DNA of 45,935 nt from Planctomycetota bacterium. Its GTDB lineage: Bacteria; Planctomycetota; UBA11346. Position 1 is the stretch's first letter, and every line of letters begins with the position of its first letter. Made by a program: the position numbers and the translations under genes. The notes below the pieces were generated by a model. The model ran no database searches, had not been told where the DNA came from, and saw nothing but the letters and a program-made list of their open reading frames with translations. This document shows, one piece after another, positions 1 through 45,935 of the stretch. The stretch spans positions 1 through 45,935 of the forward strand of contig JBBRLJ010000041.1 in NCBI GenBank assembly GCA_038231435.1, written 5' to 3'.

Positions 1-92
1 GACGGGGTCACACCCGTTCCCATTCCGAACACGGCCGTTAAGCCCGTCTGCGCCGATGATACTCGTAAGGGGAAAGTAGGTCGTTGCCTGGA
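1..92 (+). rRNA. rrf: 5S rRNA (5' end truncated by the window edge)
   Basis: Conserved 5S motifs CACCCGTTCCCATTCCGAACACGG, GTTAAGC, GCCGATGATACT and GAAAGTAGGTCG. The 3' end is approximate. Confidence 0.95.
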
Positions 93-21440: not shown

Positions 21441-22346
21441 ATGCAGATCTCCCACCTGCTCGTGAAGGATTGGCTCAACCGCTTGAATGGCATGGGCTTC
21501 GGGGTCCAGCACTTCCCCGCCTACGTGCGCCGGACGGAAGCCCTGCACACCCACGACGTGGTCGAGCTGAACTACGTGGTCTCGGGCTCCGGAACGCACC
21601 ACCTGGGCTCGCGGGCCTACCCCACCGGGCCGGGGTCGCTCGGCATCGTCCACTACACCCAGCCGCACGATATCGACATCGGCGGCGAACCGATGTCGGT
21701 CATCAACCTCTACCTGGATCTCGCGCGCTTCCAGCTGCCCGACCTGGGCGAGGAGCTGTCCAAACCGCTGTACCGCATCCTGCCCATGGACCCGAGCCTG
21801 CGCCACCAGCGCAACCAGTTCGTGCACCTCCAGTTCACGCCGGGTGGTGAGCAGGAGGCCCATCTGCACGCCATGCTCGCCGAACAGGAGCGCGCCGAGC
21901 CGGGCTACCGCGAGGCGATGCGCAGCCAGCTGCGGTTGTTCCTGATCGCCTGTGCGCGCCAGGCGCTGCGCCAGGACGCGTATCCGCTGCTCGCCGATGC
22001 TGCCGACGGAGGCGAGCGCTAACTGCGCATGGAGGAGCTGCGGCGCTCGCTGGATGCCGATCCGGCCCAGGCGGTCTCGCTCGCCGACCTCGCGGAACGA
22101 TTCGGCTGCAGCAAGCCGCACCTCTGCCGCGCGTTCAAACGCCACGCCGGGACCAGCATCCTCGGGTACCTGCTGCGCCAGCGCATCAACGCGGCGATGG
22201 TCGCGCTGCGGTCGTCGCGCGACAGCGTGCTGCAGGTCGCCATCGACTGCGGTTTCGCCGACCAGTCGTTCTTCAATCGCAAGTTCCGCGCGCTCGTCGG
22301 CATGACGCCCACCGATTACCGCGAGCGCGCCGGCGCGGGGCTATAA
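21441..22346 (+). pseudogene. AraC family regulator interrupted by an in-frame TAA at 22020-22022
   Basis: The cupin part (LHTHDVVELNYV) ends at the TAA. The same frame continues LRMEELRR... into an AraC HTH (VLQVAIDCGFADQSFFNRKFR...TPTDYR). Confidence 0.8.
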
Positions 22347-22358
22347 GTACGGGGGCTG

Positions 22359-22537
22359 TTTGTGCGGGGGCTCTGCCCCCGGTCCCCCACGACCTTTGTC
22401 GCCCTTACATCCTGGCCCCAGAGGCCAGGATGTTTGCGTGATGGGCTTTGCCCATTTTATCACGCAACCAGGACTCGGCGGTCGGCGAATCCGCCGCGGA
22501 TTGATGTCAGACCCTGTACAAGGAGCCCACGCACAAA
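22359..22537. repeat. Structured intergenic element, copy A (multi-hairpin, 15-bp imperfect terminal inverted repeat)
   Basis: TTTGTGCGGGGGCTC (22359-22373) versus GAGCCCACGCACAAA (22523-22537), 14/15 complementary. Internal hairpins are collinear with 45668-45885. Confidence 0.7.
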
Positions 22538-22575
22538 GTGCAGGATCGGGGCGATGGACGCGTTAGGATCGCGGC

Positions 22576-44060: not shown

Positions 44061-45659
44061 ATGAGCCCCAAGCCCGCATCCCCGTCAACCACCACCACGA
44101 CCGATCCCGATCGGGTCGTGATCTTCGATACCACGCTGCGCGATGGCGAGCAATCGCCCGGCGCGTCGATGAACCTCGGCGAGAAGCTGGAGATCGCGCG
44201 TACCCTCGAGGCCCTGGGTGTCGATGTCATCGAGGCCGGATTCCCCATCGCCAGCCCGGATGATTTCGCCGCTGTCCAGGCCATCGCCCGCCAAGCCACC
44301 CGCGCCCGGGTCTGCGGCCTGGCGCGCAGCCTCAAGGGCGACATCGACCGCGCCGCTGAGGCGGTGAAGCCCGCCGGCGCGCGTGCGCGCGTGCACGTGT
44401 TCCTGGCGACCAGCGCCATCCATCGCCAGTTCAAGTTCAACAAGGCGAAGCCCGAGATCGTCAAGCAGGCGCGCGAGGCGGTGGCGCACGCACGCTCGCT
44501 GACCGACGACATCGAATTCTCCCCCGAGGACGCATCGCGCACCGAGCCCGAGTTCCTGGCCGAGGTGGTCGAGGCGGTGATCGGAGCAGGCGCCCGCACG
44601 GTCAACATCCCCGACACCCTCGGCTACGCCTACCCGAACGACTACGCGGATCTGATCACCTATCTGCGCAAGCACGTGCGCGGCATCGACGACGTGGTGA
44701 TCAGCGTGCATTGCCACAACGACCTTGGGCTGGCGGTCGCGAACTCGCTGGCCGCGGTGCGCGCCGGCGCGCGGCAGATCGAGTGCACCATCAACGGCAT
44801 CGGCGAACGCGCAGGCAATTGCGCGCTCGAGGAGGTGGTGATGGCGATGCGCGTGCGCAAGGACCAGTTCAAGGGCATCAGCACCGGCATCATCAGCGAG
44901 CACCTGTACGGCGCCTCGCGTCTCGTCCAGTCGATCACCGGGCTGCCGCTGCAACGCAACAAGGCGATCGTCGGCGACAACGCCTTCGCGCACGAGAGCG
45001 GTATCCACCAGGACGGGATGATCAAGAATCCCGAGAATTACGAGATCATCACCCCGCAGTCGGTGGGCGTGCCGGGCACCACGCTGGTCCTGGGCAAGCA
45101 CTCCGGGCGCGCGGCGCTGGGCAAGCGCCTCAATGAACTGGGCCTGCCCATCCAGGAGAGCGACATCGGCAAGCTGTTCGACGCCTTCAAGGCGTTGGCC
45201 GACCGCAAGAAGGAGATCTACGATGGCGATCTCATCGCCCTGGTGGAAGAGGTGATCCGCGGTTCGGTGGTCAGCGCCTGGAAGCTGGACTATCTGCACG
45301 CGTCGTCCTCGTCCGGCGAAGGCGCCGGCACCTCCGCGCTCGCCACCGCCACGGTGAAGCTGACCAAGGATGGCAAGACGGTCACCGACGCCGCCACCGG
45401 CGATGGTCCGGTCGACGCGGTGGTGAAGGCGCTCAACCGCATCTGCTCGGTCGACGGCGTGGTCGAGGACTACCGCCTGCGCGCGGTGACCAAGGGCGGC
45501 GACGCCCTGGGCGAGGTCTCGATCCGCGCCAACGTCGGTGGCGTGGTGATCGGCGGCAAGGGCCTCTCGACCGACATCGTGCACGCCAGCGCGATGGCGT
45601 ATCTCGACGCCATCAACCGCGCCGGCATCCAGGTGAAGAAGGTCGACTACCATGCTTGA
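44061..45659 (+). CDS. leuA: 2-isopropylmalate synthase
   Basis: IFDTTLRDGEQSPG, EAGFP, EFSPEDASRT, HCHNDLGLAVAN, GIGERAGN, AHESGIHQDG, GDGPVDA regulatory domain. Confidence 0.97.
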   Translation: MSPKPASPSTTTTTDPDRVVIFDTTLRDGEQSPGASMNLGEKLEIARTLEALGVDVIEAGFPIASPDDFAAVQAIARQATRARVCGLARSLKGDIDRAAEAVKPAGARARVHVFLATSAIHRQFKFNKAKPEIVKQAREAVAHARSLTDDIEFSPEDASRTEPEFLAEVVEAVIGAGARTVNIPDTLGYAYPNDYADLITYLRKHVRGIDDVVISVHCHNDLGLAVANSLAAVRAGARQIECTINGIGERAGNCALEEVVMAMRVRKDQFKGISTGIISEHLYGASRLVQSITGLPLQRNKAIVGDNAFAHESGIHQDGMIKNPENYEIITPQSVGVPGTTLVLGKHSGRAALGKRLNELGLPIQESDIGKLFDAFKALADRKKEIYDGDLIALVEEVIRGSVVSAWKLDYLHASSSSGEGAGTSALATATVKLTKDGKTVTDAATGDGPVDAVVKALNRICSVDGVVEDYRLRAVTKGGDALGEVSIRANVGGVVIGGKGLSTDIVHASAMAYLDAINRAGIQVKKVDYHA

Positions 45660-45667
45660 GTTTTTCA

Positions 45668-45885
45668 GGGGCTTTGCCCCTACGGCCTGACGGCCTACCC
45701 CCCGGGCTTTGTCGGGGCTCGATGTCTTCGCTGCGCTACGACATCGTCGGCGGATGGGCTTCGCCCATTGTATCCGCCGACCGCCCCTCGGCGCCCGCCC
45801 CGTCGCGGAGCGACGGGGGCCCCCGCCCATATGGCGCGTTACCGCCCCGCCCCCGAGTCCAGGTCTGCCGGTACAAAGGGCGTAG
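45668..45885. repeat. Structured intergenic element, copy B (collinear with 22359-22537)
   Basis: Same order of motifs as copy A: GGGGCTYTGCCCC, C-run, CTTTGTCG, 27-nt hairpin, 7-bp stem + ATGGGCTTYGCCCAT + TKTAT, CTCGGCG, GTACAA. Confidence 0.7.
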
Positions 45886-45935
45886 ACCAACAAGCAGATA
45901 TTTTTGGCGCGCCGCGGGCCAAAATAAAGAAGAAC

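Follow-up and report, generated by a model that had tools for sequence, protein, structure and literature searches.

A multi-copy, REP/BIME-like repeat with a probable single-stranded DNA fold at gene ends in a Planctomycetota genome

The two structured intergenic segments (copies A and B) found in the window, by which the whole analysed stretch of 45,935 nucleotides is meant, are members of a large repeat family that is, on balance, probably a non-autonomous mobile element with REP/BIME-like behaviour and a likely single-stranded DNA (ssDNA) fold, spread by a putative HUH-type enzyme nicking at a CT dinucleotide. The element is without genes and its unit spans approximately 130-170 nt. It has a single fixed end, the head, which comprises a CT, approximately nine T-rich bases and a terminal hairpin (H1); the tail is loose and variable. 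The fixed end sits on stop codons and often replaces them. In the window, the following features could be distinguished:

22029..22346, plus strand: HTH half of an araC-family gene (Pfam HTH_18), with its stop TAA within the first head spacer of copy A
22341..22357, plus strand: aborted first head of copy A (a stutter), with CT, T-rich spacer and the 5' half of H1; a 15-nt direct repeat lies at 22337 and 22352
22356..22364, plus strand: second head of copy A, CT and variable T-rich spacer (the A-rich 3' end of the minus strand)
22365..22381, minus strand: terminal hairpin H1 of copy A, with loop AGA here (family loop GNA on the minus strand)
22394..22479, minus strand: three-way-junction core of copy A with the conserved CTTTGTC and TCGGC, resting on covariation and a covariance model match at 22386-22485 (97 bits)
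22401-22405 / 22470-22474, minus strand: helix P2 of the copy A core
22407-22433, minus strand: hairpin H3 (27 nt) of the copy A core
22434-22440 / 22461-22467, minus strand: helix P4 of the copy A core, with inner hairpin and 5-nt bulge
22483..22496, plus strand: variable tail hairpin of copy A, read from the sequence (tails vary between copies)
22523..22539, minus strand: remnant head of an inverted partner (CT spacer and half of H1), previously described as a terminal inverted repeat
44061..45659, plus strand: leuA, with its stop TGA within the head spacer of copy B
45655..45698, plus strand: head of copy B, with CT spacer, H1 (45667-45681) and a second small hairpin (45684-45695)
45699..45798, minus strand: three-way-junction core of copy B (B type; covariance model, 102.6 bits)
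45798..45818, plus strand: B-type tail hairpin of copy B
45846..45935, minus strand: inverted A-type partner, decayed or poorly assembled, at the contig end and containing GTACAAAGG (nhmmer, 23.5 bits)

An earlier note on this DNA had described two related segments that share six motifs. The relationship is real, but the segments are not a pair, since a profile search of the genome of the window (G000; 5.2 Mb, 88% complete) identified 320 matches at 194 intergenic loci, with 266 of the matches spanning at least 75% of the model. Motifs one to five occur where they had been placed, namely H1 (22365-22381 and 45667-45681), CTTTGTCG (22394 and 45707), the 27-nt hairpin (22407-22433), the 7-bp stem with its inner hairpin and 5-nt bulge, and CC-N4-CTCGGCG. 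A 5-bp long-range helix closing the three-way junction, formed by G-N4 after CTTTGTC with N4-C before TCGGC, had been overlooked. Each segment had been said to start about 10 nt after a stop codon; copy A actually begins 20 nt past the araC stop because it has two heads, the first of which (22341-22357) is aborted and contains the stop, with nothing of this first copy left downstream. The sixth motif, GTACAA(A)GG, is no family feature, being found downstream of only these two among 218 copies. In copy B it forms part of the decayed inverted partner, which the covariance model matches weakly (15.2 bits, E-value 0.49), and the proposed pairing of GTACAAAGG with CTTTGT is not conserved. Similarly, the terminal inverted repeat attributed to copy A exists as a 15-nt repeat, but it is present in one of 238 copies, and the MITE interpretation fails because this repeat is not shared. 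Both the inverted repeat and the sixth motif read as remnants of inverted partner copies. In the G002 orthologue of the araC gene the stop occupies the same codon position and the element is missing, and the leuA protein ends three codons earlier than its G002 orthologue. The araC gene as a whole (window positions 21441-22346) is split by an in-frame TAA at 22020-22022; the contigs of runs X2, X3 and X5 have a G at 22020, and this stop is therefore likely an assembly error or a strain variant. The contig starts with a 5S rRNA fragment (window positions 1-92).

Overlap between the G000 matches and called genes never exceeds 30 nt, based on our own codon-model gene calls. Copies A and B represent the two main subtypes, with a crude split of 87/145/6 among 238 full copies, and neighbouring copies are arranged in tandem (73), tail-to-tail (47) and in only six cases head-to-head. 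Covariance model R2 detected the element in 36 of 48 genomes of the same bacterial family (one to more than 84 copies, 84 being the scoring cap), with no copy found in the other twelve. The same model, applied to 26 candidates per genome, found none in 144/144 sampled genomes from other families of the phylum. In the part of the database collection that was scanned, the records containing the element are mostly Planctomycetota MAGs, and the viral contig, phage and plasmid collections gave no match. Comparison of orthologous loci revealed sites that carry the element in one species and lack it in another; a base-precise empty site was not obtained, the orthologues being approximately 75% identical. 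One insertion is shared with a relative that is approximately 92% identical, and some copies are therefore old. Among the best-supported joints from sequencing runs, none removes a whole element; no RNA run was listed as containing the element, and a contig from another run of the same study spans copy A with one difference. G006 contains an array (L249:9300-11750; contig C7) in which at least 17 units follow one another, the variants alternating and the spacers being almost the same throughout; no transposase-like gene adjoins it by eye. The sole copy found in the 94% complete genome G042 (L191 / L252; G042:C34:34708-34808) is associated with a tRNA-like 3' end and, at a lower GC content, has kept all helices. 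Other multi-copy repeats with a GGGGC-TNY-GCCCC hairpin and different downstream sequence are found in Alistipes/Rikenellaceae MAGs and in Streptomyces (L060, L066, L071, L133 and others).

Selection on structure, which the earlier note had proposed, is supported by covariation in the three-way junction. In alignment A3, comprising 39 copies hand-picked from G000 and other genomes with a pairing filter and thus leaning towards structure, 95.4% of the cells are paired, 23 of the 29 pairs show compensatory change, and the covariation score is 0.65, as against 0.15 for shuffled alignments and 0.07-0.11 for slid partners. The long-range helix, which was not scored in an A3-independent parse of 163 G000 copies, is paired in 136-152 of these copies per position and occurs in sixteen distinct perfect versions. 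Both segments fold better than shuffled sequences, whether as plus-strand RNA (z -4.66 for A and -2.44 for B) or as minus-strand DNA (z -6.39 and -5.17, respectively), and under DNA parameters the plus strand is the better folded in only 10 of 80 copies. The loops of the G000 copies are strongly strand-specific, with 479 GNA triloops on the minus versus 44 on the plus strand (n = 694), compared to 120 versus 129 in an intergenic control (n = 1080), and among 186 heads from other genomes the counts are 366 and 11, respectively (n = 483). RNA-type tetraloops are rare (GNRA and UNCG account for 19 of 85 tetraloops, both strands together). The G-A mismatches in H3 number 89 on the minus versus one on the plus strand, while G-T wobbles lean slightly the opposite way (15 plus, 8 minus). 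GCGNAGC and GNA mini-hairpins are described as exceptionally stable as DNA and far less so as RNA (PMC13037366). On the basis of the GNA loops and G-A mismatches on the minus strand, we therefore infer that the functional form is minus-strand ssDNA and not RNA. No Rfam family (release 15) matches at gathering score, the best E-value being 0.27. The earlier suggestion of a non-autonomous REP-like element is supported, with the element as ssDNA, and its alternative of a discrete ncRNA is disfavoured by the hundreds of clustered copies, the range from none to more than 84 copies among relatives, the DNA-type GNA loops opposite the mRNA strand and the near-absence of RNA tetraloops. DGR-like A-to-N change was also rejected, as the T positions of CTTTGTC are nearly invariant.

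At the head, CT is enriched approximately 11 nt from H1 on the strand opposite the GNA loops (31% at one position; 162 of 211 within a 7-nt window), and the T-richness of the spacer is not a property of ordinary gene ends. Among 198 outermost heads, 162 face a co-oriented stop (null 39%), and 143 of these 162 lie within 17 nt of it (null 11.5%). The remaining 36 face the start of a divergent gene and are not significantly closer to it than the null (p 0.23). Tails lie a median of 70 nt from convergent stops. Furthermore, heads abut the 3' end in five of 57 tRNA/tmRNA genes; four of these are A/B heads, and one belongs to the second repeat family described below. Where the stop is located inside the spacer, it is TGA in 30/90 cases versus 2842/3824 elsewhere (74%), and the last codon ends in T in 50/90 versus 315/3824; where it lies upstream of the spacer (n = 48), the counts are 27/48 for TGA and 6/48 for a last codon ending in T. 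For example, orthologue pairs with the junction in the last codon and the same protein end show gtc TGA versus gtt TAG (two loci), gcc TGA versus gct TAG and cac TGA versus cat TAG, and others differ in protein length in either direction; these pairs stem from different species, and single cases prove little.

The spacers are far less well conserved than the bodies they precede. Where copies at different loci have bodies that are at least 95% alike, the per-position identity of their spacers is 0.34-0.59, versus 0.31-0.44 for unrelated copies, and tandem pairs (n = 56) share a mean of 4.8/9 bases versus 3.4/9 at random. Of the mutually closest neighbours with bodies 98-100% identical, 3/22 share all nine spacer bases, by an ungapped hand count in which some neighbours are cut by contig ends. 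By contrast, the 17-unit array of G006 retains nearly one spacer. Stuttered heads, in which a spacer and part of the element are followed by a restart with a new spacer, are found in 13/203 first copies, including copy A, compared to 20/3759 control gene ends, and the 186 heads from other genomes add six more. In stutters the broken-off part stops within the H1 loop or close to it, and about half restart at a CT of the element.

A second, shorter repeat family (family C), with 132 heads, is present in G000; its body differs, and its end is of the same type. Its CT occurs at one position in 80% of the heads and is followed by four variable bases and a G-rich hairpin with the loop GTA on the minus strand. 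Fifty-seven heads lie at stops, with the CT directly following the stop in 30/132, and 24 stutters were observed (example loci L156:3735-3800 and L477-L484). G000 holds 106 occurrences of the exact core and six of 47 relatives hold one to four each; in these relatives the copies are mostly beside groEL/groES and rpsL, including orthologous groEL/groES and rpsL-rpsG sites in several genera. The window holds no family-C copy, and the low-copy loci have no Y1 or reverse transcriptase neighbour. The host genes of both families show a higher codon bias than controls (median 0.635 versus 0.592), a difference confounded with gene age. The combination of a different body with the same kind of end thus suggests that one machinery reads the head of both families.

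Neither the searches of G000 nor those of 241 element loci in other genomes identified a mobilising enzyme. Clustering of the neighbours of these 241 loci, a redundant set from which two loci near-identical to G000 were left out, yielded no recurrent transposase or other mobile neighbour. The assemblies are incomplete (88% for G000) and break at these repeats, and a flanked enzyme gene could therefore be missing from them. Three Y1-like loci were detected in G000 with a custom Y1 profile, none of them flanked by the element. One encodes a long Y1 transposase (348 aa; L001:685-1731, G000:C28) beside an integrase-like gene and tRNAs, with a second partial copy at a contig end (start of C38); the single match of a first Y1 search of G000, it was rejected as mobiliser, having its own short direct repeats unrelated to the element. 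The third encodes a single-copy Y1/TnpA-like protein with a nearly invariant C-terminal GLCGVWG (L254:2498-3334; G000:C25:40497-41336, plus strand), whose neighbours, named by eye, are lpxA on one side and a queG-like gene on the other. This protein has strong matches in 27/48 family genomes, element-free ones included, and was not found with this query in four genera. It too was rejected, as HUH and the catalytic Tyr are not conserved and its presence is not correlated with that of the element; it is likely a domesticated, inactive transposase fold. There are no matches for IS110, Rep_trans, TnpB or AEP primase in G000, and none for Y2 (PF04986), for which the control genomes gave none either. 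Reverse transcriptases (PF00078) have no match in G000, G002, G053, G054 and G055, all high-copy genomes that are 79-88% complete; element-free genomes do have them, and their presence is not correlated with copy number. In G009, a divergent element copy together with a partial second head (L033:860-1230; contig C236) immediately precedes a RAYT-like gene. This gene was dismissed as mobiliser, as it has palindromic repeats of its own, adjoins the element at one of 30 RAYT-like loci and was not found in G000-G002. The genes located between convergent copies in G000 are ordinary host genes and were likewise dismissed.

Non-autonomous derivatives of IS200/IS605 have a subterminal hairpin with a cleavage site approximately 10 nt away, and the IS91, ISCR and Helitron rolling-circle elements have one precise and one loose end, tandem multimers and a hairpin approximately 11 nt from the end. 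The element shares with the latter group one fixed and one variable end, tandem multimers and the hairpin position, but differs from it in the absence of a Y2 match (with silent controls), the hypervariable spacer and the strong gene-end bias. It is unlike IS200/IS605 derivatives in having one defined end, no fixed tetranucleotide target and no linked TnpA or TnpB, and resembles them in a hairpin approximately 10 nt from a fixed short end motif. A guide model for IS200/IS605 is given in PMC8266576, and a 3' hairpin is described for Helitrons in PMC4778049. With Rfam ncRNA motifs the element has in common a covarying multi-stem structure in intergenic DNA; it is distinguished from them by DNA-type loops on the antisense strand, very high and variable copy number and the lack of a family match.

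The closest resemblance is to REP/BIME/REPIN repeats and their TnpA-REP (RAYT, a Y1 HUH enzyme; PMC3333891, PMC8266576, PMC3733652 and PMC3116915). In both cases the copies lie outside genes and number in the hundreds; they form tandem and inverted clusters that comprise two subtypes and are joined by variable linkers, show ssDNA features specific to one strand, have a CT close to the hairpin, lie near stops and are patchily distributed among relatives. The REP unit is one 20-40-nt hairpin, whereas the element forms 130-170 nt with a covarying three-way junction. REP repeats also bear a GTAG (or CGTC) tag at the 5' foot of the hairpin; here, a comparison of the two copies showed a CTAC at 45680 in the B-type copy B, which is GTAG on the minus strand, and no GTAG in copy A. 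GTAG, hairpin and CT lie on one strand in the known REP systems, but here the CT is opposite the GNA loops and the B-type GTAG. Further differences are that no flanked tnpA-REP gene was found here (Y1 loci of G000; 1/30 RAYT-like loci adjacent), and that the heads overwrite stops and stutter. The element works like REP/BIME, yet since the tests of unit size and cognate transposase failed it is not classed as REP. PMC3733652 mentions GTAG/CGTC repeats in Planctomycetes, in passages that do not describe this element, and searches of the open-licence literature found no description of the family.

How REP-like repeats spread is still open according to PMC8266576. In PMC3333891 and PMC8266576, TnpA-REP cleaves at CT, and a BIME model is presented in which the 3'-OH primes the host polymerase and a second cleavage adds a unit, with variable linkers. 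Applied to the element, the folded minus strand would form the recognition surface, a putative HUH-type enzyme would cut at the CT approximately 10 nt outside the terminal hairpin, and the free 3'-OH would prime the host polymerase. When such events recur at the head end, the outcome would be further partial heads (seen as stutters), further whole units (tandems) or a flank cut back as far as a stop codon. Only junctions at which the T-rich spacer again provides an in-frame stop would survive selection, which would also remove heads that erode promoters. The published model, with CT cleavage and 3'-OH priming, accounts for the fixed CT head, the tandems and the stutters, and the flush heads and the orientation bias would follow from flank trimming if selection kept stop and promoter intact. 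However, exact rejoining by an HUH enzyme fails to explain spacers that differ between bodies 98-100% identical. The rewriting of the spacer and the position of the CT opposite the GNA strand are poorly accounted for, and target-primed synthesis therefore remains a live rival.

Such target-primed copying, which we consider unlikely, would begin when the AG-3' end of the folded minus strand base-pairs with a free 3' end located where a gene stops; a polymerase would then write the copy. The free 3' end could be that of an RNA or of a nick at a place where the terminating ribosome leaves ssDNA open in its wake, the first approximately nine nucleotides would be error-prone or untemplated, and synthesis would restart upon stalling at H1. 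The barely inherited spacers, even in tandem neighbours, fit this scheme, as do stutters that stop in or near the H1 loop and resume with a new spacer, the family-C heads joined exactly to stops, the abutted tRNA/tmRNA genes and the higher codon bias of the host genes, but gene conversion acting on the bodies could likewise let body and spacer vary independently, and the codon bias is confounded as stated. The scheme is further weakened by the lack of reverse transcriptase matches in the five high-copy genomes and their occurrence in element-free ones, the lack of an AEP primase match in G000, the 36/198 heads at divergent gene starts, where no RNA 3' end is expected, and the nearly identical spacers of the G006 array. 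Sense orientation and short distance to stops could instead reflect a host-kept 3'-UTR RNA element, the plus strand of which, within the mRNA, stabilises it or stalls the ribosome right behind stops, as proposed for E. coli REPs; effects on translation are reported for REPs within 15 nt of a stop in PMC12306157, and family-C copies occupy orthologous groEL/groES and rpsL-rpsG sites in several genera. This origin appears quite improbable, given loop and mismatch preferences that are of DNA type and on the non-mRNA strand, the scarcity of GNRA and UNCG tetraloops, the twelve family genomes without a copy, and stutters and nested copies that it leaves unexplained; a role in mRNA near stops may be a secondary effect. 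Least convincing, and in our estimation very improbable, is an ssDNA signal for priming or RNA polymerase (sso/Frpo-like) that is passively amplified by recombination. Priming sites on ssDNA and N4 promoters contain GNA mini-hairpins (PMC13037366), and in 75/163 parsed copies the minus strand of the B-type bulge is TACAAT, but A-type bulges are mostly AACAAT or AATAAT, no -35 lies at a fitting distance (by eye), and plasmid, phage and viral collections contain no match.

Beyond the probable REP/BIME-like mobile element, a more far-reaching interpretation can be formulated, to which we assign only a small chance. The repeats might constitute a class of gene-less, folded-ssDNA elements that use target-primed synthesis, where translated or structured RNA regions end, to write a fresh T-rich head at each event, and so recode the last codon and stop of more than 100 host genes, by means of an enzyme that is unrelated to the known RAYT, IS91 and reverse transcriptase families and serves at least two passenger families in G000. 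If true, this would represent a new insertion chemistry that targets gene ends. The readable traces, in the form of stuttered heads, fast spacers and rewritten stops at orthologous positions, make nick-and-extend models testable from genomes alone. Furthermore, a covariation-supported structure that resembles an ncRNA, yet has DNA-type loops, calls for caution in motif discovery.
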